Below are positions 2,800 through 29,369 of a DNA stretch of 64,000 bases, one piece after another. Numbering within the stretch: position 1 is the first letter of the stretch; each line of letters begins with the position of its first letter. This stretch comes from Candidatus Micrarchaeota archaeon (lineage in GTDB: Archaea; Micrarchaeota; Micrarchaeia; Anstonellales; Bilamarchaeaceae). The stretch is taken from contig WJMN01000047.1 in the NCBI GenBank assembly GCA_014727925.1, forward strand, positions 41,833 through 105,832, read 5' to 3'. The notes beneath the pieces were generated by a model, which ran no database searches, was not told where the DNA came from, and saw nothing but the letters and a program-made list of their open reading frames with translations. Position numbers and translations under genes: made by a program.

Positions 2800-2826
2800 A
2801 AAGTTTATGTAAATACATTTATATTT
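2800..2826. promoter_or_regulatory. Bidirectional AT-rich promoter region (TATA-like elements) between leuS and the six-gene membrane array
   Basis: AAAGTTTATGTAAATACATTTATATTTG. TTTATATTT lies 23 nt upstream of the ATG at 2849, and the complementary element lies about 30 nt upstream of the leuS start. Confidence 0.4.
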
Positions 2827-2848
2827 GTTAGTCGCCAGAAGTATCCCC

Positions 2849-4072: not shown

Positions 4073-5037
4073 TGCCCCTCCTGGAAACATACCTCCCGAT
4101 AGTCGGAATAACTGTGCTTGCAGTTGTTGCATATATCTCAATAATAACTATTGCTGCATTTGCCCTGAGGCGCCCCCAGCTTGCTGCGTATGCAAGGATA
4201 GAGTCCTACCAGCTATTTCTCTCGTTCCTCATACTTGTTGCCGCATTTGCAGCCATGGAATTCTCCAACCTGATTTCTACTATGATTTCCCAGGCACCCC
4301 CAGGGGAAACAGCAATAGACATTTCAGTGGATTTTCTAGAAAAGGTAATCCATGAAGGTATCCTGCCTATTTACCTAAAGCTCGTGAGGATGGAAGTCCT
4401 GCTCACCTACTTCAATGCAGTTGAGTACAGGATGGGTCCTGGAGTATGGAACTGGATAACCAAAGCAGTTCCCGGTCTTGACCCAATAATTTCCCTGGTG
4501 CGGATGCTTGTTTTCACATTTACTGCCCTATATGGAACTCTCAGCGTCCAGATAATAATATTCCACCTAATTGATGCGATTATGTACTTTTATGTGCTGC
4601 CCGCAGGAGTAATATTGCGGTTTTTCCCGCCCACGCGGGACGCAGGGGTCTATCTGATAGTGCTGGCCATAGCTTTCCAGGCATTTTTTCCCATGTTTTA
4701 TGCAATAAACTATGCTGCACTGGATGACATGTGGGAGATGCACGGGTGGGCGGACCCGGACAGCACCGGAACTTACGATAGTTATACTCCGGATATTGAA
4801 GACACCAATTATTTTGAAAGCGTCAACTCGGCACTGGGCACTGCGACAAGCATGGCAGATACTTATTTCAATTGGGCACTTCCTGTGTTCCAGCCCTTCG
4901 CTTTCTCAGTGCTGGTTCCATTCCTTGACCGTATTGCCCAAATTTCCCTGGTCGGGCTGTTTCTCCCGGCCCTTTCAATGAGCATTACAATAGCCTTAAT
5001 TAATGCGGTGACCAAGTTCATCACCGGGAAGGGATAG
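4069..5037 (+). CDS. Polytopic membrane protein, paralog 2 of the six-gene family
   Basis: Motif VLPAGVILRFFPPTRDAGVYLIVLAIAFQAFFP and N-terminal PQLAAYARIESYQLF motif shared with the siblings. 4-nt overlap with the upstream gene and 2-nt gap to the downstream gene. Confidence 0.7.
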   Translation: MMPLLETYLPIVGITVLAVVAYISIITIAAFALRRPQLAAYARIESYQLFLSFLILVAAFAAMEFSNLISTMISQAPPGETAIDISVDFLEKVIHEGILPIYLKLVRMEVLLTYFNAVEYRMGPGVWNWITKAVPGLDPIISLVRMLVFTFTALYGTLSVQIIIFHLIDAIMYFYVLPAGVILRFFPPTRDAGVYLIVLAIAFQAFFPMFYAINYAALDDMWEMHGWADPDSTGTYDSYTPDIEDTNYFESVNSALGTATSMADTYFNWALPVFQPFAFSVLVPFLDRIAQISLVGLFLPALSMSITIALINAVTKFITGKG

Positions 5038-5038
5038 G

Positions 5039-6301: not shown

Positions 6302-6311
6302 GGTTCCAAAA

Positions 6312-7433
6312 ATGAAGACAAAAGTTTTGTTCCTGGTGCTGCTGTTCCTGTCTGCAGGGTTTGCCCAGGCTGGGGACCAGGCTTTGCAGGAGGCCGAACA
6401 GGATGCAATGGAAACTGCCAGCGAACTTCTTCAGGAGATAGGGATAACCAAGGATACCTGTGCCCCGGAAGAAGGCCCGCTTGACCTGGCCATCCCATCA
6501 GCAATAGCCCTGCTTGTTATCGGGACCGGCCTGGCAATATTCTACATGGCCGCTAGTTTTTTCAATTCCCCGCAGATGATTGCCATGGCAAAGCAGGAGG
6601 GCTTTGAGTTTATCCATACCCTGATAATTGTCGTTTTGTTCCTGAGCTTCATTTCCTTTGCCCAGGGTCTGCTGGGCGTTCACGGAGTTGGCCCCCTTGA
6701 TGTATATTCAAAAGCAATGGAATACTGCGTGGTCATGGTGCAGAAGATAACCGGGGACATGTTCTGGCTGGGCTTTTTCAACAACATTGTTTACCTTGTT
6801 TACAGCTCTCCACTTAGAATAGGCATCCTGCACCAGGCGGTCCACTTCAACCTGGGCGGAATACTCAAGCCCATGGTGGACGGGCTGGGCACCATGGCTT
6901 CCCTTCTTTCATTTGCAATGGGAGAGTGGATTGTACAGCTGATTCTGCTATGCCTCATAAAGAAGCACATGCTCACTGTCTTCCTCCCGCTTGGAATCCT
7001 GCTTAAGACCTTTCCCCAGACCAGGGGAGGGGGAAATGCCATAATCGCCATTGCAATAGCCCTTTCCTTGATCTATCCAATGATGATTCTGATGAATTAC
7101 CAGGCATACCAGTACCGTTATGGACAGATGGATGCAATAAGCGGGATAGGCGAAATCCTAAGCGACTGGACAATTTCCGGCGGAACACTTGCCACGGCTG
7201 CAGTGAGCCTTTTCCTGCTAAAGGGCCTGCTCAAGACTCTGCCCGGCATAGTGCTCCTAAGCTGGCTGGTGACGGTTTTCTTTGACCTTTATGCGGACGT
7301 GATTTACACGGTTTTTGTGCTGAGCATTTTCCTTCCCCTCCTCAACATTTTTGTCACATTCACTTTTGCGAGGGAGATAGCAAAATACTTCGGCACGGAA
7401 ATAAATATCTCAGCTTTCACTAAGCTGATATGA
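6312..7433 (+). CDS. Polytopic membrane protein, paralog 4 of the six-gene family (N-terminal signal-peptide-like segment)
   Basis: Motif FLPLGILLKTFPQTRGGGNAIIAIAIALSLIYP, tail ...NISAFTKLI. The N-terminus MKTKVLFLVLLFLSAGFAQA looks like a cleavable signal peptide, unlike the siblings. Confidence 0.7.
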   Translation: MKTKVLFLVLLFLSAGFAQAGDQALQEAEQDAMETASELLQEIGITKDTCAPEEGPLDLAIPSAIALLVIGTGLAIFYMAASFFNSPQMIAMAKQEGFEFIHTLIIVVLFLSFISFAQGLLGVHGVGPLDVYSKAMEYCVVMVQKITGDMFWLGFFNNIVYLVYSSPLRIGILHQAVHFNLGGILKPMVDGLGTMASLLSFAMGEWIVQLILLCLIKKHMLTVFLPLGILLKTFPQTRGGGNAIIAIAIALSLIYPMMILMNYQAYQYRYGQMDAISGIGEILSDWTISGGTLATAAVSLFLLKGLLKTLPGIVLLSWLVTVFFDLYADVIYTVFVLSIFLPLLNIFVTFTFAREIAKYFGTEINISAFTKLI

Positions 7434-7442
7434 GGTGGAACA

Positions 7443-8483
7443 ATGCCATATGAGATGCTTGCGACACAGGCCTGTTCTCCGGAGAACATGCTGATTCCGG
7501 ACTGGCAGGCCCTGGCAGTTGTTGCAATGGCAGCATCCGCAGCCCTCCTCGGCCTCCTTTATGCAATAAACCGGTTTTTTGGAAACGAAGCAGGAGAAGC
7601 AGCAGTCAAGCTGGAGCTTTTTGAGCTTTTTACAACAGTATTCATAGTTATCGTGGTATTTGCGTTGCTTAATTCTGCATGCGGGTATGATGCTAGCGGC
7701 CTGGTAATCGCCCCAAGCAATTTTGAGGCAGGCACAAATATTTTTGACGGGGCGGCCCAGGTTCTTGATGAATTTTCAACAAAGCTGGTGATAATCGCAT
7801 CTCTTCTCCATACAATCTATATTCCTCTTGATTTTACCACTTCCACCACTCTTACCCAACATCCCCTTGGCATGGGAACTGCCTTCCAGCCCACTGGAGG
7901 CTTTGGGGCTGTCATGAAGCCCCCACTTGTGCAGTCTTTCCAGATGGTTGCAGTTGCATTTGTAATTATACGCGCACAGCTTCTTGTGCTTGATTTTGTC
8001 ACTTTTGCCTTTCTCAAATATTACCTCCCCATAGGGATAATCCTGCGTTCCTTTACCCCTACCCGCAGGATAGGTGGAACAATAATAGGGCTCACAATAG
8101 GCATGGTAATCATCTACCCTCTTTTGATAATACTAAATGGGTTCATGCTTGACGGGCTGGACATAATGGATGTAACCAATCTTCCCGAATACTTCGGGGA
8201 GCTGCTTTCTGCTGCTCTTGAGCCTCTTAGGAATTCAACAAAGGTTCTCTCCCTTTATGAGCCCCTCTCAATACTTCAATTCGGAAAGCTGGCAATAACC
8301 AGCTTTTTTGGGGCACTACTTTCTGTATACTATGGACTGTTAATGCGCACTGCGGCAGTGGCTTTTCTTGTGGGGCTTTTTTTCCCCGCTTTCAATACTC
8401 TTTTACTTGTTACCATGATAAGATACCTCACAAAAACACTCGGTGAAGAGATGGATGTCACCAACCTCACGAGGCTGATATAA
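7443..8483 (+). CDS. Polytopic membrane protein, paralog 5 of the six-gene family
   Basis: Motif YLPIGIILRSFTPTRRIGGTIIGLTIGMVIIYP, tail ...MDVTNLTRLI. The stop overlaps the next start (TAATGG). Confidence 0.7.
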   Translation: MPYEMLATQACSPENMLIPDWQALAVVAMAASAALLGLLYAINRFFGNEAGEAAVKLELFELFTTVFIVIVVFALLNSACGYDASGLVIAPSNFEAGTNIFDGAAQVLDEFSTKLVIIASLLHTIYIPLDFTTSTTLTQHPLGMGTAFQPTGGFGAVMKPPLVQSFQMVAVAFVIIRAQLLVLDFVTFAFLKYYLPIGIILRSFTPTRRIGGTIIGLTIGMVIIYPLLIILNGFMLDGLDIMDVTNLPEYFGELLSAALEPLRNSTKVLSLYEPLSILQFGKLAITSFFGALLSVYYGLLMRTAAVAFLVGLFFPAFNTLLLVTMIRYLTKTLGEEMDVTNLTRLI

Positions 8484-9526
8484 TGGACGGCTGGATAATG
8501 ATATCTGCGGTCGCGGTTATAATCTCTGCCCTGCTTGCAGCTATCATGATAATGGCCTCCCGCCTCATGCAGCTCCCTGACCTTGAGCAGTGGGCAAAGT
8601 CCGAGCTGGTCTTCTCGCTTTCCACAGTATTTGTGCTCCTTTTCCTAATCTCCATAATTGAGTTTGCCGAGCCCCTCCTAGTAGACATCATAAGGGAGAT
8701 GACTGAATTCAACTTCGGGCAGCAGAGCGGCCAGATACCTGTGCTTCCCCCAGGGGAAGAGGCCACACTCATGGATTACGCCCTTGCGTATATGCATTCT
8801 GTTTTTTCCTGCATAAAATCTCTTTTCAAGTTCCTGCTCAAGCTGAATTTTCCCCTGGAACTGGCCGCCTCATTCAGCGTGGATGTTTTCATGTTTGATG
8901 CGGTGGGAGGCTGGGTTTACAAGGGCCCGGTCCAGACAATTAAGAACATGGCCAATTACATAACATTCACCCTGTTCATCTATTACTTGTTCATACACAT
9001 AATGCGTTTCCTGGAGGCAACTGCACTCACAATATTCATTCCGCTGGGGATAATTCTCAGGCAGTTTCCCCCCACCCGGGGCTCGGGTGCATTCATAATC
9101 TCATTTGCAATCGGGTTTTATATAGTGTTCCCGCTTGCTTACCTCCTCGTGGTCAATGTGGTGCCGCAAACGTTTGCCTGTCCGGTACTTCCGGAGTTTG
9201 AGCATCTAGATGGCCTTACGGCATATGGAATGGGCGACTCCCATACTGCTTCGGACATGCTTCTCTGGTCCGATGCCCACCAGAGCGGAGTCTGGAATAC
9301 CCTGAGCGGAATAGGCGGGTATCTTGCAGGTTTCGATCTTGATTCTTTTGATGTAATCCCGGATGCGGTTGAGTTTACTGCAGGAAGGGTTGCAGGGTTT
9401 TCCATAAACCTTTGCTGCCTCCCCTTTCTTGCAATGATAATAACAATGAGCTTCATCCTCTCCAGCACGAATCTTTTCGGAGCTAATCTTCCTGAGATAG
9501 GAAGGGGATTCATCAAGCTAATCTGA
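8483..9526 (+). CDS. Polytopic membrane protein, paralog 6 of the six-gene family
   Basis: Motif FIPLGIILRQFPPTRGSGAFIISFAIGFYIVFP, tail ...GRGFIKLI. Confidence 0.7.
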   Translation: MDGWIMISAVAVIISALLAAIMIMASRLMQLPDLEQWAKSELVFSLSTVFVLLFLISIIEFAEPLLVDIIREMTEFNFGQQSGQIPVLPPGEEATLMDYALAYMHSVFSCIKSLFKFLLKLNFPLELAASFSVDVFMFDAVGGWVYKGPVQTIKNMANYITFTLFIYYLFIHIMRFLEATALTIFIPLGIILRQFPPTRGSGAFIISFAIGFYIVFPLAYLLVVNVVPQTFACPVLPEFEHLDGLTAYGMGDSHTASDMLLWSDAHQSGVWNTLSGIGGYLAGFDLDSFDVIPDAVEFTAGRVAGFSINLCCLPFLAMIITMSFILSSTNLFGANLPEIGRGFIKLI

Positions 9527-10582
9527 TTTTTTGAACAGGTAGTGATAGAATGGATTTTTTTCCGCCCCCCGCTTAAGCAGCTCAATATCATACCCTTCCT
9601 TCTCAAGTTTTTTTGCCTCCCCCTCTATTTCAGCAGCCTCCATGTAATCCAGCTTTTCAAGCTCTACCGAAAAAAGCTTCCGGCCCAGCACCCTCTCCAC
9701 GAACCCATCCTGTGCCTCAACACTCCCCCTGCATTTTTTCTCAAGCCACCCGAAATCAACATCAACAGTGTACTGCTCCCCGTATTTCCTTACAACTGAA
9801 CTGTTCCATATTTCAGATGTAAGCGCTTCAATTTCCTCTGTTCCGTAGAATCCATACTCAAAAAGGCTCAGCCCCCCTCCATCAGCGAGTTTTCCCTTCC
9901 ATTTTTCCACCAGGCCGATTGCTTCAATGTTCACCGGTACCCAGTATCCCTCCGGGATGTTTTCCATCCTTTCCATGGCAACTGCAGGGGCGCGTGGCTG
10001 TTCCCATGCCGCAAATTCACCGTTGTTCCATCCCACTTCGTAAATTTTCCCCTTCTCTTTTACAAATACTCTTGCAGGAATATCATCCAGAATCTCGTTT
10101 CCCCTTATCCAGAGAGCACTGCCCATTTTTTCCGCTTCTTCTGCAGGGGCACACACGGATTCAATTGCATATTCCCTCAGCTTCTCCTCAGACGCATCCA
10201 GCATTTTCCTGCTTATGTCCCACAGCGTGTATACTACCCTCTTGCCCACCGAATGATCTATCCTGTTAATGTTTTCAAGGAATTTTTTGGCAAAGCTGCC
10301 GTCACCCACACCAAACTCATAAACCCTGAGCTCCCCTTCTGTGTTGCCCGCACTCTCAAGGAATTCCAGTGCACATGCCTTGCCCAGCCTTGCAGATGCC
10401 GCAAAGGTCTTGAAGTCCTGGTAGATGTGCTTGCCCCTTTCCGGATAATACCTGCGGTTGGTCCTCTCCATAAGCTTTGCAATGCTCTCCATCACACTTT
10501 TCCTGCTCCGAAACAAATAATAATCATCTCCCTGATTTATCCGCATGCAGCAGTTCGTACTTGACACAAGCCTTTTTGTCAA
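9518..10582 (-). CDS. Class I SAM-dependent methyltransferase-like protein
   Basis: Gly-rich motif I (VYEFGVGDGSF) followed by an acidic beta-2 end (VYTLWDIS). Substrate unknown. Confidence 0.5.
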   Translation of the reverse strand: MTKRLVSSTNCCMRINQGDDYYLFRSRKSVMESIAKLMERTNRRYYPERGKHIYQDFKTFAASARLGKACALEFLESAGNTEGELRVYEFGVGDGSFAKKFLENINRIDHSVGKRVVYTLWDISRKMLDASEEKLREYAIESVCAPAEEAEKMGSALWIRGNEILDDIPARVFVKEKGKIYEVGWNNGEFAAWEQPRAPAVAMERMENIPEGYWVPVNIEAIGLVEKWKGKLADGGGLSLFEYGFYGTEEIEALTSEIWNSSVVRKYGEQYTVDVDFGWLEKKCRGSVEAQDGFVERVLGRKLFSVELEKLDYMEAAEIEGEAKKLEKEGYDIELLKRGAEKNPFYHYLFKKSD

Positions 10583-11102
10583 TCCTGACTGCAGGAAGCA
10601 GTTTGGGAAAACCCCCTACTCTTCGGTTTCAGGCTTCATAAAAAAAGCGAAAACAAAAAAGAAAAAGGCAGAGTTCTACATGCCTCCCATCGTGTTCAGG
10701 GAACTTTCCCATTTCACTGAAAAGGGCTCTTCCCGGCTTTCAACTGTAGTTAAAAAGCGAGCCCCGAACCTTTATGGAATATACATACCTGCAGCAATCC
10801 TCTACACCTTCATAGATGATGTAAGGATGCGGGTAAACAAGGGTCTGAGGCTCGCAGAGGAGTTTGCCAGGGACAACAAGCCGGACAACAGGGCAAAGCT
10901 CAACAAACTCAGGGCAAAATACAGGGAGGCTATGCGCAGGGGGATGGTTGATTCCAAGGAGGACCTGGAGGTTATACTGCTCGCGTATGAGCTCGGGGCA
11001 ACAATTGTCACTTCTGATGAGGGGATGGTTGAGATGGCGAACAAGATAGGTGTTGAATGGATAGAGGCAGAGAGGTTCGGCGCCCTTCTCAAATCAATTT
11101 GA
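10545..11102 (+). CDS. RNA ligase partner protein, UPF0278/MJ_0950 family (PIN-like)
   Basis: N-terminus MQQFVLDTSLFVNPDCRKQFGKTP...FYMPPIVFRELSHF closely matches the conserved N-terminus of archaeal UPF0278 proteins. A Pab1020-type RNA ligase lies 500 bp away. Confidence 0.75.
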   Translation: MQQFVLDTSLFVNPDCRKQFGKTPYSSVSGFIKKAKTKKKKAEFYMPPIVFRELSHFTEKGSSRLSTVVKKRAPNLYGIYIPAAILYTFIDDVRMRVNKGLRLAEEFARDNKPDNRAKLNKLRAKYREAMRRGMVDSKEDLEVILLAYELGATIVTSDEGMVEMANKIGVEWIEAERFGALLKSI

Positions 11103-14006: not shown

Positions 14007-14546
14007 CTACCAGGGGACTTTCTTAAGCCCTGCCCTGTTTGCCATCAGGTTTGTGCCCACATGAAGCAGGTAGGATATAATCAGTATGAATGCGATATTT
14101 GGAATCGTGTATATGCCTTTTGCAAATGGGTATGCGAAGACCAGTGCACCCATTACGAAGTCCATCTGGTCTAGCACCCTTGAGTGCATTCCCGGTCTGA
14201 CACCCATCCTCCTTTTTATGAAGCTGCCTCCCGCATCCCCCACCAGGGCTCCCACTGCAAGCATTGAGCCGGAGAGGAAGAGCACCTCGCGGTTTCCAAA
14301 AAGCAGGCCGGGCCACCACAGGGAGATGAGCCCCGATGCAATCACGCCCGCTGCGATTCCCCCTAAAAATCCCTGAACTGTTTTGGTCTTCCCAAACAAG
14401 CCCATTCCGTCTCCAAGCGTAATCCCGCAGTCAAGGCGGCCCCCCCCTCCAACCAGTACAGGTGCGGCATTCGCAATGTAACAGGGAAGCATGAATGCAA
14501 GGAGCTCCAGAAAAATCATTTTATTCTTCATCACATTCCCAATCAA
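14007..14546 (-). CDS. carS: CDP-archaeol synthase (CDP-2,3-bis-O-geranylgeranyl-sn-glycerol synthase)
   Basis: 179 aa. Motifs LPCYIANAAPVLVGGG, GDAGGSFIKRR and C-terminal LKKVPW match the CarS family. Confidence 0.8.
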   Translation of the reverse strand: MIGNVMKNKMIFLELLAFMLPCYIANAAPVLVGGGGRLDCGITLGDGMGLFGKTKTVQGFLGGIAAGVIASGLISLWWPGLLFGNREVLFLSGSMLAVGALVGDAGGSFIKRRMGVRPGMHSRVLDQMDFVMGALVFAYPFAKGIYTIPNIAFILIISYLLHVGTNLMANRAGLKKVPW

Positions 14547-15761: not shown

Positions 15762-16712
15762 ATGTCTGATAAAAAATATATTCGCCACAATCCAAAGAAA
15801 GAAAAAGGGATAAAATTTCCTTATCTTGTGCTTGCATTCCTTACCTTGGGCTTTCTTGCAATGATTATCTCGGTTTTTGTTTCAATGGCTTCAGAGGGCC
15901 CTGTTTTCGGGGAGTGTGTGGCCGTTGTGGAAATAAATGGGGAGATTACAACCCAATCCTCGCCAACGAGCATGTTTGCTGAAGGGACCTATGGCTCCTA
16001 TGAACTTTCAAAAAGAATAAACGCACTCAATGGGCGCGATGAGGTTTCTTCTGTGCTGCTTGTGGTAAATTCACCCGGGGGCTCAGTTGTTGCAGCAGAT
16101 GAGATTTACCGTTCGGTGGATTCAGTTGAAAAGCCGGTTGTCGCTTATTTCCGGGAAACGGCTGCTTCAGGTGGATACTATATTGCCGCACCCGCGGATT
16201 ACATAGTTTCTGAGCCCAACACCCTTACAGGCTCACTTGGGACAGTAATGTATCTTGCCGAATTCAGCGAGCTTGCAAAGGAGCTAGGCATAAAGGACGT
16301 TGTAATAAAATCAGGGGAAATGAAGGACATTGGAAATCCCATGCGCAATATGACAGAGGAGGAGGAAGCCCTGCTCCAGGAGGTTGTGGAAGAGGCATTC
16401 CAGCATATGAAGTCCAACATAGAGGAGCAGCGCGGAGACTCCCTCGTATACCCTGAGTTCAACGAGGTTCTAGACGGAAGAGTTCTTTCCGGCAGGATGG
16501 CACTTGAGGCGGGCCTTGTTGATGAGCTTGGCTCAAGGGACGATGCCCTTATGAAGGCAGCAGGGCTTGGGGGGACTGAAGCTGCCTCCCCTTCTGATGT
16601 GGAGGTGTGCATGATAAAGACCAAGCCTGAGGCTGCGGGCCTCTTTGACATGAGTTCCTTCATAAGCAGTATTTTCTCAGAGGAACAAACACCTTCACTC
16701 AATTACCGGTGA
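15762..16712 (+). CDS. sppA: Signal peptide peptidase SppA (protease IV, S49 family, 36K type)
   Basis: N-terminal TM, VVNSPGGSVVAADEIY and AASGGYYIAAPADYIVSEPNTLTGSLG motifs characteristic of S49 peptidases. Confidence 0.85.
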   Translation: MSDKKYIRHNPKKEKGIKFPYLVLAFLTLGFLAMIISVFVSMASEGPVFGECVAVVEINGEITTQSSPTSMFAEGTYGSYELSKRINALNGRDEVSSVLLVVNSPGGSVVAADEIYRSVDSVEKPVVAYFRETAASGGYYIAAPADYIVSEPNTLTGSLGTVMYLAEFSELAKELGIKDVVIKSGEMKDIGNPMRNMTEEEEALLQEVVEEAFQHMKSNIEEQRGDSLVYPEFNEVLDGRVLSGRMALEAGLVDELGSRDDALMKAAGLGGTEAASPSDVEVCMIKTKPEAAGLFDMSSFISSIFSEEQTPSLNYR

Positions 16713-17083
16713 ACCCCTTGGAACCAGAAAAAATCCTTGTTGCATCAGTCGCAGTTTTTACAGGGTTGTTGATACTTGTGCTATTTATTTACTTTTTTTC
16801 TTATCCTGGCACCCGCCTGGATTTTTCGCCCACTTCCCTTGACCTGGGGAGCTCAGGCTATGAATGCACTCTAGGAGATGAGCTTCCCTGCACCGATGAG
16901 GGGGGTTGCCCGGGCACCAGATCCTGCCTACACGGAGACTGGTCTTCCTGCACTGTCCGGGAGGAATGCACCCCCGGGGAAACCCGCTTCTGCCCCACCG
17001 GGGGCTGCACCAACGGGGTACAGAGATGCGATGCATGCTCCCAGTGGGGGCCCTGTCTCCCCTCTGGATGCTCCAGCGGATAA
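16709..17083 (+). CDS. Small membrane-anchored Cys-rich protein (hypothetical)
   Basis: GTG start overlapping the sppA stop (GTGA). N-terminal TM helix, then a domain with about 10 Cys plus Gly/Thr/Pro. The alternative-frame ORF 16878.. overlaps it but is probably non-coding upstream of 17124. Confidence 0.45.
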   Translation: MNPLEPEKILVASVAVFTGLLILVLFIYFFSYPGTRLDFSPTSLDLGSSGYECTLGDELPCTDEGGCPGTRSCLHGDWSSCTVREECTPGETRFCPTGGCTNGVQRCDACSQWGPCLPSGCSSG

Positions 17084-17123
17084 CTCCGGTGTGTTTAAAA
17101 GCTTTTATTTTAGAATTATATCG

Positions 17124-17789
17124 ATGGGAACCAGAAAAGCATTTGTATTTTCCCTTGATTCATTTGTTGCATTTGTGCTTACAGTTGCTGCTCTGTATTC
17201 CCTCCTGTTTTTCGCAACGGTTCCTGCTGCTTATTATTCTTCGCTGACACAGGCAAATTACCTTGCAAAGGATACTCTGCTTGCGCTTGCAACAACCACT
17301 GCAGGTGAAGGGGCCGCCCACTGCAGCGAAGGGCAAACATATCTCGACTGTGTAATTGAAGATAAAAAAGCAGCGAGGATATATATAGGCTCAAAGGGCC
17401 AGGAAGGAGGATACGATGAGAGCGCCCTTGTGCCTGCCCAGTTTGGTTATAAGATTGAGACCCTTGATTTTTCGGAGGGAGACGGGGAAATAAACTTTTC
17501 TGATGCAGACTGGAGCGAAGTTTATAATACGGCAGATGACCCGCAGTCTGCAAACAAAAAAGAATACCACAAGCTCAAGGCAGCTGCCCACGCGCTTTAT
17601 TTTGGCTACAGCCAAGCCCCGGAGGGGGGAGAGGAATCCCCGCTCCACTATGTTAGCTGTGGAGGAGAATACACAATTTGCTCCTGGCCCGAGCCATTCA
17701 TTTATTATGGCAGCTATGACCATGAAGGGAACACTGACATCGTTGGAGATGCATATTCGCGGGTTGTGAGATTCACAGTATATACTTGA
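17124..17789 (+). CDS. Pilin-like protein A with class III (type IV prepilin-like) signal peptide
   Basis: Start at the internal ATG gives MGTRKA|FVFSLDSFVAFVLTVAALYSLLFF: short basic n-region, K at -2 and A at -1, then a hydrophobic helix. AT-rich TATA-like sequence immediately upstream. Confidence 0.55.
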   Translation: MGTRKAFVFSLDSFVAFVLTVAALYSLLFFATVPAAYYSSLTQANYLAKDTLLALATTTAGEGAAHCSEGQTYLDCVIEDKKAARIYIGSKGQEGGYDESALVPAQFGYKIETLDFSEGDGEINFSDADWSEVYNTADDPQSANKKEYHKLKAAAHALYFGYSQAPEGGEESPLHYVSCGGEYTICSWPEPFIYYGSYDHEGNTDIVGDAYSRVVRFTVYT

Positions 17790-17797
17790 GGTTTTCC

Positions 17798-19552
17798 ATG
17801 AACAGAAAAGGGTTTTTCTTCATAATCGTGGCGTTCGTCCTTCTTTCCTACATCCTTACATCTACCTATTTCTGGGTGCGGGCAATAGAGATGGAAGAAT
17901 CCAGGTATTCCGAAGCATTCCGCACAAGCTCCATGGAGATGGCGCTTTCCCAGGTAAATGAGGAAAGCGTAGGAGAATATGTGGACATTTCGGCCAGGTA
18001 TGCATTTTACCGCCTAAACCACCATTCTATTGAAAACCCGGTAAGTGTTCCGGGTGGTGTTGATATTGCAAATGAGGATTCCCTGGATGGCTCCGAGCTT
18101 GAGAACGTCCGTCTCGCGATGCGCGAGCTTGTGCTCTCCGGAACAGCACCAGAGGATTATTTTGAAGGGGAACCGCTAGAATATAGCGAAAATGAAAAAC
18201 TGGTCTATTCTCTGGATGGGTGGAAAAATCAGCTGAATGCATCGCTTGCCGCAGCCGGCTTTGAGCTGGTTGAGCTTTCAATAGATGAGGGTTCATTTGA
18301 GTTCAACCAGGTTAACTTCACCCAGTTTGAACTCGTTTTTGAAATGAACATGACCATTGTGGACAGCCAGGCAGGCTCTTCAACTTCCCTCCACCGCACT
18401 TATGATGTGAACCGCACGGTGGATGCAACAGGCATGGTGGATCCCTACATTGCCCGCGAATCCAAAAATCTGGACCTTGAATGGGAAGGAGAGAGCGTGC
18501 TGGTTGGGAAACCGGTATTTATTGCGCCCTACTGGGAAGATGGCTATGAAGCACTCTGCTCAGGAGGGGAAAACGGCCCCTGCTATTACGAGGATGATGG
18601 CTCAGAAGGCCAGGGCTGGTTTTATGGGCCAGTTGTTATGGCTGAGGATGCCTCCACTGTTCCTGAAAATGCAACCGACAATTATATTCTTGCAGGAAAT
18701 TATTCTGCTATAAAAAGCACTCCGGACTGGGATAAGTTCGGCGCATATATACTCACGAGCCCTCCCACCGAAGAGAATTCCGATTGCCCGGGCGAGAATG
18801 ACCAGGATGATACATTCAGCCCTGTTTATTATGATGGGGACTGTGATGCAGAGCTTGATACCGGATCAAACGATTACATCCAGAAGCCCTTCATGGTCTA
18901 TGAAGGGTTTGATATTGGTGATTATGGGGGAGTGGACCTCCAGAGCGGGGACGAGAATGCCCACAAGCTCCTATTTGTTGCAGGGGCAAACCCCTGGGAG
19001 GTAGAAACAGACCCGGAGCTAAAGTTTGAGGGTGTTTCAGTTTACAATATTGAAAATCTTAGGGATTTTGTAATGTGCGGATACTACATGCCGCGCAACA
19101 ACAGCCCCTCCTTTCTCCACCGCATGTTTGACCTGCAGGGAATGTTTAATGACGAGCTCCCTGCCTACGATGGCTGGCCCGAGAGCCCCTGGGGAATTGA
19201 GACCACTGCAGCAGGAAGGTGGGCAGGGGGAAACCTTGTGGCAGATTCCTGGGATGCCTACAGCAGGGTTGATGTTGAGTTCTTTTCAGAGGTGGAGAAT
19301 ACTCCCCAGAACCCGGTGCAGATGATTAAGGGGATGCCCGGGAACAAGAATATTTATATGTGCAACATGGAGTTTGGCTACGACCCGAACCTGGAGCATG
19401 TGGGCCATTTCAGGCTGAGTGACTGGGCCCAGGAAGACAGGGAAGAATACGATGATATTTACTGGATAGAAACTGATGACAGCCCGGATGTACCGGAGAA
19501 CGACAACACAGGTTGTGATAATGATGAGCAGGCAAACTGCGAGCTCGACTAA
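17798..19552 (+). CDS. Large pilin-like/adhesin-like protein B with class III signal peptide
   Basis: MNRKG|FFFIIVAFVLLSYIL N-terminus. 585-aa acidic extracellular domain with N-x-S/T sequons. The TTG at 17786 is an alternative start. Confidence 0.55.
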   Translation: MNRKGFFFIIVAFVLLSYILTSTYFWVRAIEMEESRYSEAFRTSSMEMALSQVNEESVGEYVDISARYAFYRLNHHSIENPVSVPGGVDIANEDSLDGSELENVRLAMRELVLSGTAPEDYFEGEPLEYSENEKLVYSLDGWKNQLNASLAAAGFELVELSIDEGSFEFNQVNFTQFELVFEMNMTIVDSQAGSSTSLHRTYDVNRTVDATGMVDPYIARESKNLDLEWEGESVLVGKPVFIAPYWEDGYEALCSGGENGPCYYEDDGSEGQGWFYGPVVMAEDASTVPENATDNYILAGNYSAIKSTPDWDKFGAYILTSPPTEENSDCPGENDQDDTFSPVYYDGDCDAELDTGSNDYIQKPFMVYEGFDIGDYGGVDLQSGDENAHKLLFVAGANPWEVETDPELKFEGVSVYNIENLRDFVMCGYYMPRNNSPSFLHRMFDLQGMFNDELPAYDGWPESPWGIETTAAGRWAGGNLVADSWDAYSRVDVEFFSEVENTPQNPVQMIKGMPGNKNIYMCNMEFGYDPNLEHVGHFRLSDWAQEDREEYDDIYWIETDDSPDVPENDNTGCDNDEQANCELD

Positions 19553-19988
19553 GAAAGGGCAGGCGGCCACTGAAACAATGGTCACCCTTGGAATGATCCT
19601 TGTTTTCGTGATACCCATACTGCTCCTGCTGCTCGTTGGCGCACAGGCCAGGTTTGAGTCTCTCTCCCATATTCAGGGTGGTTCAGTTATCAGGATAGTT
19701 TCTGATTCCATAAATGAGGTATATATAGAAGGCCCGGGCGCTTCAAAAACAGTTGTGGTTAATTTCCCAAGCAACGCCCGCTATCTCAACGTAACTGAGG
19801 ATGAGGTGGTGATGGGGCTGGATACCCGGAGCGGCCCAACAGATATAGTTTCCCCGTTTTTTGGTGAGCTCAACCAGAGCTCCAGGGGCCTGGTTGCACT
19901 TCCTTCAGGGGATGCACCTTCCGGGCTTTATCCAATAAAGTTTTATGCAGACAGCAGTGGAAATGTGGTGGTTGAGCATGGCGGGTAG
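19521..19988 (+). CDS. Pilin-like protein C with class III signal peptide
   Basis: MMSRQTASSTKKG|QAATETMVTLGMILVFVIPILLLL: KG followed by Q at +1 and Glu at +5, the hallmark of archaeal and type IV prepilins. The start overlaps the end of gene B. Confidence 0.6.
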   Translation: MMSRQTASSTKKGQAATETMVTLGMILVFVIPILLLLLVGAQARFESLSHIQGGSVIRIVSDSINEVYIEGPGASKTVVVNFPSNARYLNVTEDEVVMGLDTRSGPTDIVSPFFGELNQSSRGLVALPSGDAPSGLYPIKFYADSSGNVVVEHGG

Positions 19989-20523
19989 CAGAAAAGGCCA
20001 GATTGCAATTGAGTTCCTGATGTATTCAGGGCTTTTCCTGATAATTGCAATCGGCGCATATGTCCTTACTTCTTTTACAGAAAGAGGGGAGGTAAGCCTC
20101 AGGGAATCACAGCTGCTTGATGCATTCGGCTACAAGTTCGCTTCTGCGCCCACAATTGCCTACAAAGGAGGCGAGGGATTTACCTATGATATCTCTTTTG
20201 CAAAAAAGCTTGACAACCGCCCCTACAATGTTACCTATGCCTGCACAGGAGGCGACTCCAGGAGCTGCTATGTGCAGATTGCCTGGAGGGGCACTTACCA
20301 GGAATTCACCTACCCCTACGTGATTGCACCTGCCTTGTACAAGAAAGGGGAAGGTGCAGGGGATTCAGCTTGCATTGAGGATATAAGCTCAAGCAGCTCT
20401 GTTGACCTTGCTCTCAGGGTGGATTCTGAGTATTCAGATGGGCACCTTATATTCCGCAACACGGGAATCAAGCCAGGAGACGAATATCCCACAGTTGAAC
20501 TATATTGCGAGGTGGATGAGTAA
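19978..20523 (+). CDS. Pilin-like protein D with class III signal peptide
   Basis: MAGSRKG|QIAIEFLMYSGLFLIIAIGAYVL: RKGQ with Glu at +5 (same pattern as Methanococcus EppA-type pilins). Overlaps gene C by 11 nt. Confidence 0.65.
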   Translation: MAGSRKGQIAIEFLMYSGLFLIIAIGAYVLTSFTERGEVSLRESQLLDAFGYKFASAPTIAYKGGEGFTYDISFAKKLDNRPYNVTYACTGGDSRSCYVQIAWRGTYQEFTYPYVIAPALYKKGEGAGDSACIEDISSSSSVDLALRVDSEYSDGHLIFRNTGIKPGDEYPTVELYCEVDE

Positions 20524-20981
20524 TGAAGGGCCAGTATTTCAGTTTTGATGCAATAATCGGCGCATCCATATTCATCCTCACCCTTGTTGCAATCTTTTCT
20601 TACTGGTATGGGGTGAGCAATTCAATTGAGCAGCAGCAGTCAGCCCTTGCAACAGAGGCAATCCGCATAGCGGATATCCTTTATTCACCAACCGAAGTCC
20701 CTTATGGGGTAACTGTAAACTGGAGCAACAAGCACCTATATGTTCCCAAAGTGGAAGCTCTCTGTGATGAAGAGGCCCCTCCCTCAGATGTGCTGGGCTC
20801 TGAGTATGCGGTTTCAATTGATTTCAACACCCGTGGGGACAATATTTGTACCTGGGGAGAACAGTCCATAAATTCAAATGAGATTTACAGGATGCGCAGG
20901 GCAGGTTCTTACTTAGATGAAGATGGCACAACCAGACTGGGCTATGTGGATATCTTTGTTTATAACCCCTATTCAAACTAA
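20523..20981 (+). CDS. Pilin-like protein E with class III signal peptide
   Basis: MKG|QYFSFDAIIGASIFILTLVAIF: KGQ with Asp at +6. Overlaps gene D by taATGa. Confidence 0.6.
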   Translation: MKGQYFSFDAIIGASIFILTLVAIFSYWYGVSNSIEQQQSALATEAIRIADILYSPTEVPYGVTVNWSNKHLYVPKVEALCDEEAPPSDVLGSEYAVSIDFNTRGDNICTWGEQSINSNEIYRMRRAGSYLDEDGTTRLGYVDIFVYNPYSN

Positions 20982-25148: not shown

Positions 25149-28100
25149 ATGTCTTCCCATTCAAAAAAAGGTTCCTTCAGCTTCAGGCGTTTTGATGAGC
25201 TGACGGTCCTGCTTGCAGTTTTCTTTTTCATCTTTGGATGCATAATCATCCCGGAGCCACCTATACCTGTGGAGCTCAACAAGTTCTCTGACCTCTCTAC
25301 AAGCAAGGAGCTGCAATTTGAGTCCCCCCCGGAGTCCCAGAGTTTCCACCTCAATATCTCCAGATACGCCACAGTGGGAAATTCTTCCATTCCTGCAGAG
25401 GGCAATCCAGGCGTAGTGCAGAATTTCAGCATGCGCATCTGCCCGATTGAGCATATGGGCTCCAATGTATCTAACCTGACTATGCACTGGCCCGGGGGAG
25501 AATCCTACATGTTTTACCCCGGAACCCTGGATTCCTGCGAGGAGGTTTCAATAAACGCATCAGGATTCAATAGCTATCTTTCTGTGCACCAGGCGCCCAC
25601 CATAACAGGGATGCTTTCAAAAATATCTTCGGGTGAGAATGTTTCAATGGAATGGGGAATAAGCATGAAGAACCCCAAGATGAAGGATGTGGATGACCCG
25701 GTAACATATCAATTTATGATAATAGAGCCATCTATTCCCGAGAATTTGATTGAGCAGCTGATTGCAGCTACCGGGACCGCACTTCCACCAGGGTTTGACC
25801 TGCTCACCGATGCCCGCCTTTCAGGAGTGTCCTATACATGCTATGGCTGGGATCAGGTTAGGGAGACCACTTCCCCTTCAGCAGCATACCCTATACAGGT
25901 TTCAGTTCCGGGAATGAACCTGAGTGCGCTTATACCCGACCTTACAATTCCCAATGGGACGGTTGTGATGAATGCTTCTGTTTTTGAGATGGACTGCCCT
26001 GCATACGGCACCCCGGGAAAATACCGCTCAGAAGTCCGCAGGCTCCAGTTGAATCTGAACAATTATACAGGCCCTGTGCCCAGCGCTTCATTTTCAGATG
26101 ATTTTAACAGCCCTTCTCTGAACCCTGCATGGGTATTTGAATATGCGGGAACCCCTTCTGTCCTCGGATGGTATGTTGACAACAGCACACAGAGCACAGT
26201 TGAGCTTTATTCAGAAGGCAACGCTTCTGGCTCATCTGCATATTATTACCGCAACCACACCATTGATTCCAGCGGAGGTGCATTTGTGCTTGAAGCAAAT
26301 ATCTCCACTGCAGGAGAACCGCCAATAAATATGTCCATGCCACTCCCAGAGGGCGCAGGAATGGTTGCATTCACAACCAACCATTCTTACCCTGGCCCCA
26401 TGGCATCCGCAGGCACCCAGCTACGCAGCTTCATAGCCTTTGGAAATAATGCAACTCTCATCGGGTGCCCGGATGGGACCAGGGCATCCATTATCCCCAC
26501 TTCTTCAGGCTACCACACGTTCAGGATAAACATCACAAATGACACTGCAACATATGCTGTGGATGGTGCGCAGGTTTTCCAATGCACAAACCATACCTCC
26601 GCGGAACTCTACCCAATGTTTTCATCTGATTTCCTCACTGATGGGTTTATGGGCAATATTTCAGTTGACTGGATAAACATAACAGCTTACTCTGGCGGCC
26701 CTGGCACATGGTCTGAGGAATGGTCTGAATTTGACCATTTTGATTCCCCACTGGATACTGGCAAGTGGCTTATGCGCAATGTATCTGTGCCTAAACAGAT
26801 ACCATATTATTCCTACCAGCCGTCCCTGAGCAAAATTGACCTCTACTCATACAATACAGATGAAAACGATAACAGCACAGGCATATTAATGTACTATAAT
26901 GAGTCCTTTGCCCCGCCCACAAGCAACGAATCAGGAATTTATTTTACCACATCAGTTTATTTTAATGAATCAAACCCTGCTGCAGCCCCAGGATTCATGT
27001 TTATGAATGATACTGTGTCTCCTGCCGGATTCAGTGAACTGGAAGACAATTACCGGGGAGGGATAATCTACTCAAATGGCTATATTGTGCTGACCTGCCC
27101 CAACACCTCAAAAACTTATGCTGCCAACCTTAGCCAGCTCTCCTACATTATGGGCTGGGGAGAACCCACCGGATGGCACCAGCTGGGTTACTATTCCACG
27201 AATGATACTACTGCATTCTTTTATGATGATATGCCCATGCCCCTGAATTGTTCCCCACATAATGAAAGCGTTTATATTGCTATCACATCTGACCCCACAA
27301 CAGATCTCACAGAAGGCAATGGTTCAGTGCGCTGGTTTGAGGCATACAGTGTTGAATACGAAGAAAACTATTATGGGGAGAAGTGGTTTGATCTTGGTCT
27401 CCTCTCATATATGGGATACATAAACAGGAGCATGTATTCTGATGTTATTGTTTTTGATGCGGACTCAGAAGGCAATTATTATGACAGGGAATTTGAGTTT
27501 GAAGTCACCTCAGATACGCCCGGCCGCCTCCAGATGGATGCCCTCAATATAACATATGGTTCCTTGATTTCATATGGCCCGGGGGGCACAGCACCCACAA
27601 CCACACTGGACCCGGATTCGGATTTCTCCTGGTTTGCGATAAACTCTGAAATAGATAATTCCCACATGCGCCTAAATTCCTTTGCCTACAACTCTACCCT
27701 TACTGATTCTGAGCTTATAATGGCAAGGGCAGACTGCGTGAATATTACAGATTCCAGGCTCCTGTTCTCTGGTGCAGTTTACAATACAGAAGAGAAGCAC
27801 CTAGGTGAGCTGGGGGGGCTACTCGAAGACCTGAACATGACTTCCTGTGATGGAGTAGTAGAAAATTCCGAACTGGAATTTGTTTTCCTTATAGGCGGGA
27901 ATGCATTCAATTCTGAACTCAAGACGCTTCCCGCCATAATTGCAACTGATTTCTATGATGCAACGATGGACAACCTCACCCTTTACAGGGGCAGGATGGT
28001 GATAAACGGGACCCGTGCCCCGGACATGTTCCAGGATGAGCTTGACCTGGGAGATTTTATGGGAATCGGGCTTTCAACCTTTGAGGACAACACCACCCTT

Positions 28101-29369
28101 CCATTCTCCTGCGAGGAGCAGTCAACCATGGCAATAGATGGCGCAGCAGACCTCAGGCTTGCGGATGCCCCTGCCAAAACCGTGAACTGCCGCTTTGAAC
28201 TGCACAATTCCAATTTCACCGTGCAGAACCTTACTTTTGACAACGAGTTCGGGGGAATCCGGGTTTCCCTGGACAACAGTTCCCTCCATGTAAATGATAT
28301 GCCCGAGCCAATAAACCTGACAACATATGGGCAGCTTACAGATGTTGTAATATGGAACCTGGATACCTCACTGCTTTCTGGTCCCCTGGTAGTTTCAGAT
28401 GAAGGGATATACATTGAAACAGGGATGGCTTCTGTTAACAAGACTGCACCAGGAGCAAATATGAGCGAGATTTCAGACCTTTTCAACATTTCCCTGATAT
28501 ATAATAATGTCGGGGAGTGGGACGGCAGCATAACATATTATGGCAATTTCACCCGCAACAGGACACATGCAATGCAGAGTGGAATTGAGTGCCCCGCAGA
28601 CCGCTGCCAGAATGTAGTGTTTGACCGCTCTGCCCACACAATCCGGGTAGATATTTCCAATTTTTCTACATATGTGGTCAATTACACTGAATATGAAGAT
28701 GAGGATGAAGAAGAGGATGACGATGGCCCAGATGATGTAGATTATCAGCTTGAGGTCGAAGGCGCATGCGCAGGCTCTGCAGTAAATTTCACTGCAAGCC
28801 GCTCCGGGCTTGGCACAAGCGGAATCACAATCCGGGTTTATGGCCCAGACAACCAATCCCTGTTTTATGGCCATGATGAAACAGGAAGCCATGGCCGCGC
28901 TTCATTCACCCCCACATTTCCCGGAACATATTACTACTCAGCAGGCGCAGCAGGTTATACGGAAAAAACAGGCAGCATTGAGATACTAAACTGCACCACC
29001 CCCTCCGGGGAAGCCCCTCCTGCCGAGCCAATTCCTGAAGAGGAGCCTCCAGCAGGCACTCCTTCAAAGGAAGAATGCTATTTAGATGCTGATTGCCCGG
29101 CAGGCCATTGGTGCATAGAAAATGAGTGCGTGCTTGCAATTGAGCCTACTGAGGAAGGCCCGGGCCCCGAAATAACCCCGCCTTCCCAGGCCCAGGAGGT
29201 TCCGTCTGTGGCAGAGCCCAAAGAAGAGGCTGGGGAAACCCCTCCATGTTGTCTCGTGGGCATCTGCCTTGAAGTGCTGGGAGTATGCTGGTACTATTGG
29301 GTTGCAGGGCTGGCGATTCTTGGCCTTTTTGTCATTATTTACATCAATTATCCGGGCAAAAAGAGATAG
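25149..29369 (+). CDS. Large N-glycosylated cell-surface protein (S-layer/adhesin candidate) with C-terminal TM anchor
   Basis: 1406 aa. N-terminal signal/anchor (LTVLLAVFFFIFGCIIIP), dozens of N-x-S/T sequons, acidic run EDEDEEEDDDGPDD, Pro/Glu/Thr-rich stalk, then C-terminal hydrophobic helix CWYYWVAGLAILGLFVIIYINYPGKKR (PGF-CTERM-like topology without the PGF tripeptide). Confidence 0.7.
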   Translation: MSSHSKKGSFSFRRFDELTVLLAVFFFIFGCIIIPEPPIPVELNKFSDLSTSKELQFESPPESQSFHLNISRYATVGNSSIPAEGNPGVVQNFSMRICPIEHMGSNVSNLTMHWPGGESYMFYPGTLDSCEEVSINASGFNSYLSVHQAPTITGMLSKISSGENVSMEWGISMKNPKMKDVDDPVTYQFMIIEPSIPENLIEQLIAATGTALPPGFDLLTDARLSGVSYTCYGWDQVRETTSPSAAYPIQVSVPGMNLSALIPDLTIPNGTVVMNASVFEMDCPAYGTPGKYRSEVRRLQLNLNNYTGPVPSASFSDDFNSPSLNPAWVFEYAGTPSVLGWYVDNSTQSTVELYSEGNASGSSAYYYRNHTIDSSGGAFVLEANISTAGEPPINMSMPLPEGAGMVAFTTNHSYPGPMASAGTQLRSFIAFGNNATLIGCPDGTRASIIPTSSGYHTFRINITNDTATYAVDGAQVFQCTNHTSAELYPMFSSDFLTDGFMGNISVDWINITAYSGGPGTWSEEWSEFDHFDSPLDTGKWLMRNVSVPKQIPYYSYQPSLSKIDLYSYNTDENDNSTGILMYYNESFAPPTSNESGIYFTTSVYFNESNPAAAPGFMFMNDTVSPAGFSELEDNYRGGIIYSNGYIVLTCPNTSKTYAANLSQLSYIMGWGEPTGWHQLGYYSTNDTTAFFYDDMPMPLNCSPHNESVYIAITSDPTTDLTEGNGSVRWFEAYSVEYEENYYGEKWFDLGLLSYMGYINRSMYSDVIVFDADSEGNYYDREFEFEVTSDTPGRLQMDALNITYGSLISYGPGGTAPTTTLDPDSDFSWFAINSEIDNSHMRLNSFAYNSTLTDSELIMARADCVNITDSRLLFSGAVYNTEEKHLGELGGLLEDLNMTSCDGVVENSELEFVFLIGGNAFNSELKTLPAIIATDFYDATMDNLTLYRGRMVINGTRAPDMFQDELDLGDFMGIGLSTFEDNTTLPFSCEEQSTMAIDGAADLRLADAPAKTVNCRFELHNSNFTVQNLTFDNEFGGIRVSLDNSSLHVNDMPEPINLTTYGQLTDVVIWNLDTSLLSGPLVVSDEGIYIETGMASVNKTAPGANMSEISDLFNISLIYNNVGEWDGSITYYGNFTRNRTHAMQSGIECPADRCQNVVFDRSAHTIRVDISNFSTYVVNYTEYEDEDEEEDDDGPDDVDYQLEVEGACAGSAVNFTASRSGLGTSGITIRVYGPDNQSLFYGHDETGSHGRASFTPTFPGTYYYSAGAAGYTEKTGSIEILNCTTPSGEAPPAEPIPEEEPPAGTPSKEECYLDADCPAGHWCIENECVLAIEPTEEGPGPEITPPSQAQEVPSVAEPKEEAGETPPCCLVGICLEVLGVCWYYWVAGLAILGLFVIIYINYPGKKR

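Follow-up and report, generated by a model that had tools for sequence, protein, structure and literature searches.

A conserved five-gene operon of type IV prepilin-like proteins, encoded apart from assembly machinery, in Micrarchaeota

Gene content and layout of the locus

A 64-kb stretch of DNA (the window) from an archaeon of the Micrarchaeota (DPANN) was analysed. Five closely packed genes, here named A to E, are located at 17124-20981 on the forward strand, and each encodes a short basic leader, a [KR][GA] pair and a single N-terminal hydrophobic helix (Table 1). The open reading frames and N-termini agreed with the first-pass annotation, which had reported five consecutive genes with class III (type IV prepilin-like) N-termini. 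Its corrected start codons were right, that of gene A being further backed by a TATA-like box (TTTWWAW) that starts at -32 to -29 from this gene in 56 of 56 loci. The same motif precedes B, C, D and E in just 2, 1, 0 and 2 loci, respectively. Because the box lies about 30 nt before gene A in all of these loci, A-E constitute their own transcription unit. In the window it is situated inside a 40-nt gap between gene A and the preceding gene for a Cys-rich protein. Gene A has no Shine-Dalgarno-like motif, and GGTG-type motifs precede the downstream genes, most clearly D and E. From these motifs it is proposed that the transcript is leaderless or carries a very short leader. Overlaps of 4-30 nt had been described between the genes, which holds for B/C (29 nt) and C/D (11 nt), but D and E share only 1 nt and A and B are separated by an 8-nt gap. 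Across the A-E loci the median intergenic gaps are 9, -1, -1 and 2 nt. The five genes are a genuine operon of proteins with class III (type IV prepilin-like) N-termini.

Table 1. Features of the window around the five-gene operon (a slash marks the predicted cleavage site).
Feature	Position	Strand	Description
Array of six paralogous polytopic membrane proteins	2825-9526		
SppA, S49 signal peptide peptidase	15762-16712	+	N-terminal anchor; Pfam Peptidase_S49, E=3e-37
Cys-rich TM-anchored protein	16709-17083	+	124 aa; GTG start; 1 TM; 12 Cys, 10 conserved; 4-nt overlap with sppA stop
TATA-like box TTTAAAA	17094-17100	+	30 nt 5' of gene A ATG; proposed promoter of A-E
Gene A	17124-17789	+	221 aa, pilin-like; MGTRKA/FVFSLDSFVAF; Phe+1, Asp+6; 1 N-terminal TM; 4 Cys
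Gene B	17798-19552	+	584 aa, large pilin-like; MNRKG/FFFIIVAF; no acidic residue at +5/+6; 8 Cys; 7 N-x-S/T sequons
Gene C	19524-19988	+	154 aa, pilin-like; MSRQTASSTKKG/QAATETMVTLG (..STKKG/QAATE); Gln+1, Glu+5
Gene D	19978-20523	+	181 aa, pilin-like; MAGSRKG/QIAIEFLMY; Gln+1, Glu+5
Gene E	20523-20981	+	152 aa, pilin-like; MKG/QYFSFDAII; Gln+1, Asp+6

Conservation of the five genes and their neighbours

The same five families were found in the order A-B-C-D-E in 66 loci from different Micrarchaeota species and assemblies, namely 63 loci from different Micrarchaeota MAGs (L008-L070) and three loci of a distant branch (L071-L073). In the distant branch, identity is about 30% and the neighbourhoods are unrelated, and the A-E order is kept. 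The recurrence of these families and of their order is far beyond chance. Family B alone forms 418 clusters at 50% identity.

The genes upstream of the operon behave differently. sppA is found upstream of gene A in 38 of 51 loci and the Cys-rich gene directly upstream in at least 32 of 51, and both are absent from the three distant-branch loci. SppA and the Cys-rich protein are thus lineage-specific, dispensable neighbours outside the invariant A-E unit. A coupling of this pair to the pilin operon, as claimed initially, was not borne out: A-E have their own promoter and only the Cys-rich gene overlaps sppA. In L022 and L025, the Cys-rich protein is fused to a HExxH domain. SppA was also considered as the leader peptidase and rejected, because this S49 serine protease has its catalytic domain after one N-terminal anchor and should therefore face outward. 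Class III signal peptides are cleaved on the cytoplasmic side by polytopic aspartic proteases of the A24 family. An exact look-up of the window SppA in the contig index gave no match.

Class III signal peptides, sequence families and predicted structures

By published criteria (PMC4371748), a class III signal peptide has, near the N-terminus, position -2 occupied by a charged residue and position -1 by G/A(/S). Essentially all orthologues of A-E have K or R at -2, G or A at -1 and F or Q at +1, with variable positions -6 to -3, and sequence conservation in the families begins exactly at -2/-1, the predicted cleavage site. Leaders are 3-12 aa long. The motif M-[RK]-A/F-[IV]-F-S-L-D is invariant among 57 orthologues of gene A (3-aa leader in 41), the consensus of the gene C family is MKG/QSSxELLVTVG, and G-Q-Y-F-S-F-D-A is invariant in 58 orthologues of gene E. 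In a Kyte-Doolittle scan, an H-domain of about 20 residues directly follows the site in each of A-E and there is no second TM segment. Gln+1 together with an acidic residue at +5 (EppA-type) is present in C and D, while E combines Gln+1 with Asp+6; the three members for which Gln+1 plus Glu/Asp at +5/+6 had been claimed are therefore confirmed. Gene A has Phe+1 and Asp+6, and gene B has Phe+1 and no acidic residue. Cys residues are conserved in families A, B, D and E, which is consistent with an extracellular location. In one locus (L057) repeated pseudo-cleavage sites occur upstream of D, and Tandem Repeats Finder detected no DNA-level repeat behind them.

As N-terminus predictor we used a loose class-III-like rule of our own, which matched 9 of the 63 ORFs in the window. 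Five are A-E, and the remaining four are polytopic proteins or ordinary signal anchors. A 1406-aa ORF (25149-29369, MSSHSKKG/SFSFRRFDE...) was considered as a sixth pilin and rejected, as charged residues follow right after the putative cleavage site.

None of the A-E families reached a Pfam or NCBIfam threshold, either as single proteins or with 50-55 orthologues per family, and all matches were sub-threshold. Gene D scored 14.5 bits against Class_IIIsignal (PF04021; gathering threshold 23.7 bits), a weak test because the model spans just 27 positions. At E<0.01 this model was matched by 3 of 50 D and 2 of 50 C orthologues. Gene E stayed below the 27-bit gathering threshold of DUF7287 (23.2 bits, E=1.1e-4, residues 8-57 only), with 16 of 55 orthologues at E<0.01 (best E 3.7e-6), and three of 50 D orthologues matched DUF7266. 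These sub-threshold likenesses to the haloarchaeal Pfam families DUF7287/7288/7289/7266 (E to DUF7287, D to DUF7266, C to DUF7289) concern mainly the N-terminal helix, and we found no mention of the four families in the literature searched. Gene A had no Pfam match. Profiles of all five families retrieved nothing meaningful among PDB sequences, and the profile search with family E is silent on distant homology, since the best 120 of 645 matches listed were all close Micrarchaeota relatives. Between the families, A and E are related over their N-terminal 48 columns (hhalign probability 92%) and C and D across 101 columns (89.5%).

The AF2 model of gene E (pLDDT 87) has a helix at residues 5-53 followed by a four-stranded antiparallel sheet, and its globular domain most closely resembles PDC/Cache sensor domains. 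Gene B is modelled with an N-terminal helix at 3-50; Foldseek gave no global match in the PDB for this model, and structural similarity to pilins and pseudopilins, although weak, came up repeatedly. Gene B is a candidate tip subunit; a GspK-like tip pseudopilin would be expected to combine a pilin-like N-terminus lacking Glu5 with a large insertion and a structure resembling GspK.

The missing family assignment at Pfam gathering thresholds, the missing PDB sequence matches and the lack of Gln+1/Glu+5 in A and B speak against a pilin reading. The absence of above-threshold Pfam matches and the N-termini of A and B would also suit bitopic membrane proteins whose signal anchors are never cleaved. 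Such proteins would form a static complex outside the cell, for example one that anchors the envelope or S-layer or acts as a sensor, and their likeness to class III signal peptides would be convergent. The sensor-like domain of gene E and the position of the cluster amid housekeeping genes, where none of the 66 loci has machinery within 10 kb, point in the same direction. However, an ordinary signal anchor has no need for an invariant [KR][GA], an invariant +1 residue, acidic residues at +5/+6 and 3-aa leaders. In addition, small class III pilins of bona fide appearance adjoin A-E in the distant branch, and the weak structural matches of gene B are to pilins and pseudopilins. We therefore regard unprocessed anchors as unlikely.

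Assembly machinery and proposed function

In the window, no T2SSE-type ATPase, T2SSF/TadC protein or A24 peptidase was detected, including by Pfam scans of unassigned and polytopic ORFs. No ORF of the 63 loci or the window has a T2SSE-type Walker A plus Asp-box motif, and the Pfam annotation of the distant-branch loci contains no secretion ATPase or platform. Overall, none of the 66 loci has a secretion ATPase, TadC or A24 prepilin peptidase within 10 kb. The absence of assembly machinery near the pilin-like genes, first noted for the window, thus extends to the related loci.

One explanation offered for this absence was that the six-gene membrane array substitutes for a platform. Apart from frequent proximity, we found no positive evidence for it. 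At least 23 loci have the array no more than 10 kb from A-E, in one of two arrangements: upstream in the same orientation or, in L042 and L048, immediately downstream and convergent. The array family has no Pfam or PDB relative. A self-contained new surface apparatus of A-E and the array, perhaps with SppA and the Cys-rich protein, in which the six paralogues replace the TadC platform, would accommodate these observations. However, many loci and all three of the distant branch have no array within 10 kb, the array gives no T2SSF signal, unrelated housekeeping genes lie between it and A-E, and no ATPase that could serve as energy source is associated with it. The proximity is accounted for just as well by synteny, as these genomes are small and rearrange slowly, and we consider such an apparatus highly improbable. 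Very unlikely, too, is a Micrarchaeota-specific host-contact envelope apparatus in which A-E would act without canonical ATPase/TadC, together with the array as a possible hetero-hexameric ring and, in many lineages, SppA and the Cys-knot protein.

For the other explanation, a satellite pilin locus that relies on machinery from elsewhere, experiments in Methanococcus maripaludis provide a direct precedent (PMC4187195). There, the Epd locus (mmp0231-0241) carries EppA along with the minor pilins EpdA/B/C, and the genes for the major pilin (MMP1685) and for the ATPase and TadC proteins (MMP0040, 0038, 0039) are located elsewhere (PMC4187195). The A-E arrangement is real, yet it has this precedent for split loci, in which the ATPase, the platform and the small major pilin come from other sites. 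Both systems have several pilin-like genes in one transcription unit and the KGQ motif with Gln+1 and acidic +5 (in C and D); the substrates of EppA bear a KGQV/KGQI signature (PMC4371748; PMC4187195). In contrast to Epd, the A-E families have no detectable homology to known families at Pfam/NCBIfam thresholds, the operon includes no peptidase or accessory gene, and A and B have Phe instead of Gln at +1. B proteins (500-900 aa) also have no DUF2341 domain, the hallmark of the large proteins in clade-1 loci.

We consider it reasonably probable that A-E supply, as one module, the minor pilins of an Epd-like type IV pilus whose machinery is encoded elsewhere, as is probably a small major pilin. 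The five proteins would be type IV pilin-like, with archaeal class III signal peptides and an N-terminal helix that inserts each of them into the membrane, and an A24-family prepilin peptidase from elsewhere would cut after [KR][GA] on the cytoplasmic side. They may then assemble into a minor pilin complex of fixed stoichiometry, whose bundled N-terminal helices would prime and subsequently cap a type IV pilus-like filament, with the large gene B product, which has no acidic residue, on top and the Glu5/Asp6 subunits below. Extrusion of the filament would depend on a PilB/FlaI-type ATPase and a TadC platform whose genes lie at other genomic sites, and the shaft probably consists of a small KGQxSxE-type (Epd/EppA-substrate) pilin from a separate gene. 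In such a surface filament, A-E would probably serve as the starting or tip complex, with the motor genes located elsewhere.

Whether the operon itself contributes the shaft depends on the small members. The first-pass annotation had read the set as a major pilin plus minor pilins, of which the major pilin is doubtful. In the distant branch, two further class III genes flank the A-E cluster, and one encodes a pilin with a 75-80-aa precursor (72-77 aa mature, M[KR]G/QLSAEMLI; Class_IIIsignal 19-22 bits), which is the better major-pilin candidate. Its size matches the stand-alone major pilins of about 70 aa in clade-1 archaeal pili (PMC4858521). On the other hand, in the window's branch none of the 63 loci has a small stand-alone pilin within 10 kb, and none was found in the 64-kb window. 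C and D have the canonical KGQ...E5 motif, and additional C-like copies lie near the cluster in L030, L031, L040 and L062, a duplication typical of major pilins (PMC4858521). A-E might therefore be a complete pilin set served by machinery elsewhere, with a small member, most likely C (or D), as the major shaft and A, B and E as minor pilins. Against this stand the dedicated QxSxExxxL-type pilin beside the distant-branch cluster, the usual stand-alone genes of major pilins in Epd-like systems (PMC4858521) and the tight translational coupling, which would yield roughly equal amounts of the five proteins and is ill-suited to a shaft subunit needed in large excess. We hold a complete set to be rather doubtful, and favour the minor-pilin module.

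This reading gives an annotation hypothesis for five families that are labelled 'hypothetical' in the sources and lie outside Pfam. Micrarchaeota are ultra-small, host-dependent DPANN archaea, and to our knowledge their means of attaching to the host is not known. As a fixed-order module found in 66 Micrarchaeota assemblies, A-E can be named as specific candidates for a complex at the base or tip of a filament for host contact, and they may have a role in host attachment. The layout of a pilin operon apart from its motor, so far documented mainly in Methanococcus, is here extended.

Among bacterial sets, GspH-I-J-K of the T2SS, FimU-PilV-W-X of T4aP and Gram-positive ComGC-GG belong to the closest systems. 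Two ATPase/TadC systems and a single A24 peptidase are encoded in Mia14, the genome of a cultured member of the Micrarchaeota (PMC5498576). A genome-contig scan for the gene B motif did not return Mia14. In this member of the same phylum ('Ca. Mancarchaeum acidiphilum'), the locus MIA14_0252-0260 includes a run of proteins, six or seven in number, that carry the annotation 'contains class III signal peptide', a likeness to A-E by annotation only, in which one protein is labelled 'component' and not pilin. Unlike A-E, this run adjoins an ATPase (0252) and TadC (0253).

Class III N termini of the five-gene cluster

The five adjacent pilin-like genes, termed A to E, as well as sppA and the gene for a Cys-rich protein, were found in the ORF list and the sequence as described in the first-pass annotation (see table). 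In the window, gene A starts 40 nt behind the Cys-rich gene, and the following distances are +8 (A-B), −29 (B/C), −11 (C/D) and −1 nt (D/E). GGTG-type Shine-Dalgarno motifs are found before the downstream genes, with D and E as the clearest cases, and are absent before A. Each of the five proteins has a single hydrophobic segment, which is N-terminal.

When orthologues were aligned on the putative cleavage site, K/R at −2 and G/A at −1 were found throughout, and positions −6 to −3 were variable. The +1 residue does not vary within a family: A and B have F there, the other three Q. A minimal leader, M-[KR]-[GA], is present in 41 of 57 A and 39 of 58 E orthologues. Glu is located at +5 in C and D, Asp at +6 in A and E; an acidic residue at +5/+6 was never seen in B, its most distant members included. 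These features agree with the published criteria for archaeal class III (type IV prepilin-like) signal peptides, and KGQ together with Glu5 is the signature of the EppA substrates of M. maripaludis (PMC4371748; PMC4187195). According to hhalign, A and E share a related N-terminal stretch of 48 columns (probability 92%); for C and D the related stretch is 101 columns long and reaches into the globular part (probability 89.5%).

None of the families A to E reached a Pfam threshold, and searches of their profiles against PDB by sequence found nothing. The model of B (70-sequence alignment; pLDDT 86, pTM 0.81) shows a helix at residues 3–50 followed by mixed alpha/beta domains. Since Foldseek gave no global match for it (TM-scores ≤0.13), the models are compatible with pilins rather than proof of them.

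In 9 of 51 species (L057, L024, L070, L026, L034, L041, L044, L047, L055), the D frame runs upstream into the C-D region as one to three degenerate units of ~16 residues, ..NLRGQVATE(R/G)TSF.., which have the cleavage-site motif but no hydrophobic helix. No ATG was found in frame in this extension, and Tandem Repeats Finder gave no repeat at the DNA level under the units in L057. If translated, they would form a long leader with decoy cleavage sites.

Features of the window and of related Micrarchaeota loci (L numbers); a slash marks the putative cleavage site
Feature	Location	Strand	Remarks
Six tandem paralogous polytopic membrane protein genes	2825-9526	+
Same array elsewhere	L042:12855-19562; L048:12868-19689	-	also in others
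Same array elsewhere	L026:16-5641
Upstream synteny block	9518-11102; 14007-14546		also L001, L006, others
sppA	15762-16712	+	Pfam Peptidase_S49, E=3e-37
Cys-rich gene	16709-17083	+	124 aa, one TM anchor, GTG start
TATA-like box of A	17094-17100		TTTAAAA
Gene A	17124-17789	+	MGTRKA/FVFSLD
Gene B	17798-19552	+	MNRKG/FFFIIV; 584 aa
Gene C	19524-19988	+	...STKKG/QAATE
Gene D	19978-20523	+	MAGSRKG/QIAIEF
Gene E	20523-20981	+	MKG/QYFSFD
Large ORF	25149-29369	+	1406 aa
Upstream D-frame extension	L057:9381-9650; L024:2796-2960; L070:12002-12260
Cys-knot fusion protein	L022:8299-9375; L025:707-1822
Small pilin gene	L071:8720-8962; L072:9061-9294; L073:9063-9290	-	M[KR]G/QLSAEMLI...

Conservation and transcription unit

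A word index returned 72 homologues of B with identities from 91% down to 29%, and all named ones derive from Micrarchaeota, Micrarchaeia, Bilamarchaeaceae or 'ainarchaeum'-labelled MAGs. A full HMMER profile search extended family B to 418 clusters (50% identity), of which 177 had E≤1e-30; the distant members sampled were, where named, all Micrarchaeota. HMMs of A to E, built from six loci, recovered the genes, with their order unchanged, from nearly all 63 loci (one genome per species). Carriers of A to E include chromosome OY970229.1, contig JBAZFC010000001.1 (1.03 Mb) and the MAG to which JBKHJL010000002.1 belongs. In a divergent branch (L071-L073; B of 640–730 aa) this order is intact and the surrounding genes are entirely different; therefore, the invariant unit is the five genes and not the wider neighborhood.

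A TTTWWAW TATA-like element begins −32 to −29 from the ATG of A in 56 of 56 loci. The same search before B, C, D and E gave 2, 1, 0 and 2 loci, respectively, and the median gaps over loci are 9, −1, −1 and 2 nt (A-B to D-E). The element before A thus validates the short leader of this protein and provides the cluster with its own promoter. These data suggest that the transcript is leaderless or near-leaderless.

Assembly machinery and the reading of the cluster

The proposed lack of assembly machinery in the window was confirmed. Motif scans for a T2SSE-type ATPase (Walker A and Asp box) and an A24 prepilin peptidase (GxGD in polytopic ORFs) were empty in the window and, for the 63 loci, in the 10 kb flanking the cluster on each side. 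Pfam scans of unassigned and polytopic window ORFs gave housekeeping families only, and Pfam annotations of L001, L003, L005-L007 and L071-L073 contained no machinery. A less likely reading is that the five proteins are signal anchors that stay uncleaved in a static complex; the empty scans favor it, and the K/R-G/A motif retained at the site speaks against it. M. maripaludis is an experimental precedent for a pilin locus split from the genes for shaft pilin, ATPase and TadC platform (PMC4187195). The micrarchaeon 'Ca. Mancarchaeum acidiphilum' Mia14 is available in culture, as is its host Cuniculiplasma. Its genome is reported to encode two ATPase/TadC systems, one A24 peptidase and a run of class III proteins, MIA14_0254-0260 (PMC5498576).

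The most economical reading of the sequences is that A to E represent the minor-pilin module of an Epd-like type IV pilus. The pilin operon proposed in the first-pass annotation is a real observation, and the pilin reading is largely right; cleavage, complex formation and function of A to E are what we infer. With a single promoter, the five proteins would be produced at about the same level, and B, which lacks Glu5, would act as the capping subunit. The genes for shaft pilin, ATPase, TadC and peptidase would be located elsewhere in the genome. This kind of system is already known, and the cluster is a new, unannotated, phylum-specific example.

Alternatively, C or D, which carry KGQ and Glu5, might be the shaft subunit. 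Bearing on this, two further, divergently transcribed genes are located just upstream of A in L071-L073. One encodes a small pilin (precursor 75–80 aa, mature 72–77 aa) with four C-terminal Cys that fits QxSxExxxL and scores 19–22 bits with Pfam Class_IIIsignal, just under the cutoff of 23.7; the other, beside it, encodes a C-like pilin of 128–152 aa. Clade-1 major pilins are about 70 aa long and mostly stand-alone genes (PMC4858521), a description with which the small pilin agrees, making it a candidate major pilin. The window contains no such gene, nor do the loci of its branch within 10 kb.

Neighboring genes

The six array proteins (322–420 aa, 5–7 predicted TM segments) are mutual paralogues with a common LPxGxxLRxFPxTRxxG motif and a C-terminus conserved as ...GL(T)xLI; searches of Pfam and PDB gave no relative. 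Because paralogue number is fixed and order apparently conserved, a hetero-oligomeric complex is suggested. At least 23 Micrarchaeota loci have the array no more than 10 kb from the pilin genes; in most of them it is located upstream, and in two it follows directly downstream in convergent orientation. An unlikely reading is that array and pilin-like proteins together constitute a new apparatus. This proximity is suggestive, but conserved synteny accounts for it equally well, and the array is absent near the cluster in L071-L073. Nothing was found to mark it as the substitute platform proposed earlier.

SppA is encoded directly 5' of A in 38 of 51 loci and the Cys-rich protein in at least 32 of 51; both are absent in 13 loci and in L071-L073. 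The suggested coupling to sppA therefore holds for the Cys-rich gene in some lineages, its GTG start overlapping the sppA stop by 4 nt, but not for A to E. The 10-Cys knot (C..G....C....C.G...C..G.W..C.....C.PG....C....C......C..CG...G.C) is in two species fused to a C-terminal domain of ~240 aa bearing an HEFxH motif (HExxH zinc-metalloprotease-like).

The 1406-aa ORF probably encodes a large surface protein. An anchor is present at its N-terminus (MSSHSKKGSFSFRRFDELTVLLAVFFFIF...), Pfam gave no significant match, and by the class III rule used here it is not a substrate. The synteny block 5' of the pilin operon, found in many Micrarchaeota, reads Methyltransf_28 (−), PIN_5 nuclease (+), CarS (CDP-archaeol synthase) (−) and SppA, with an RNA ligase between PIN_5 and CarS in other loci. 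Downstream and convergent are MiaB-like and DnaG genes, the latter in 37 of 46 loci.
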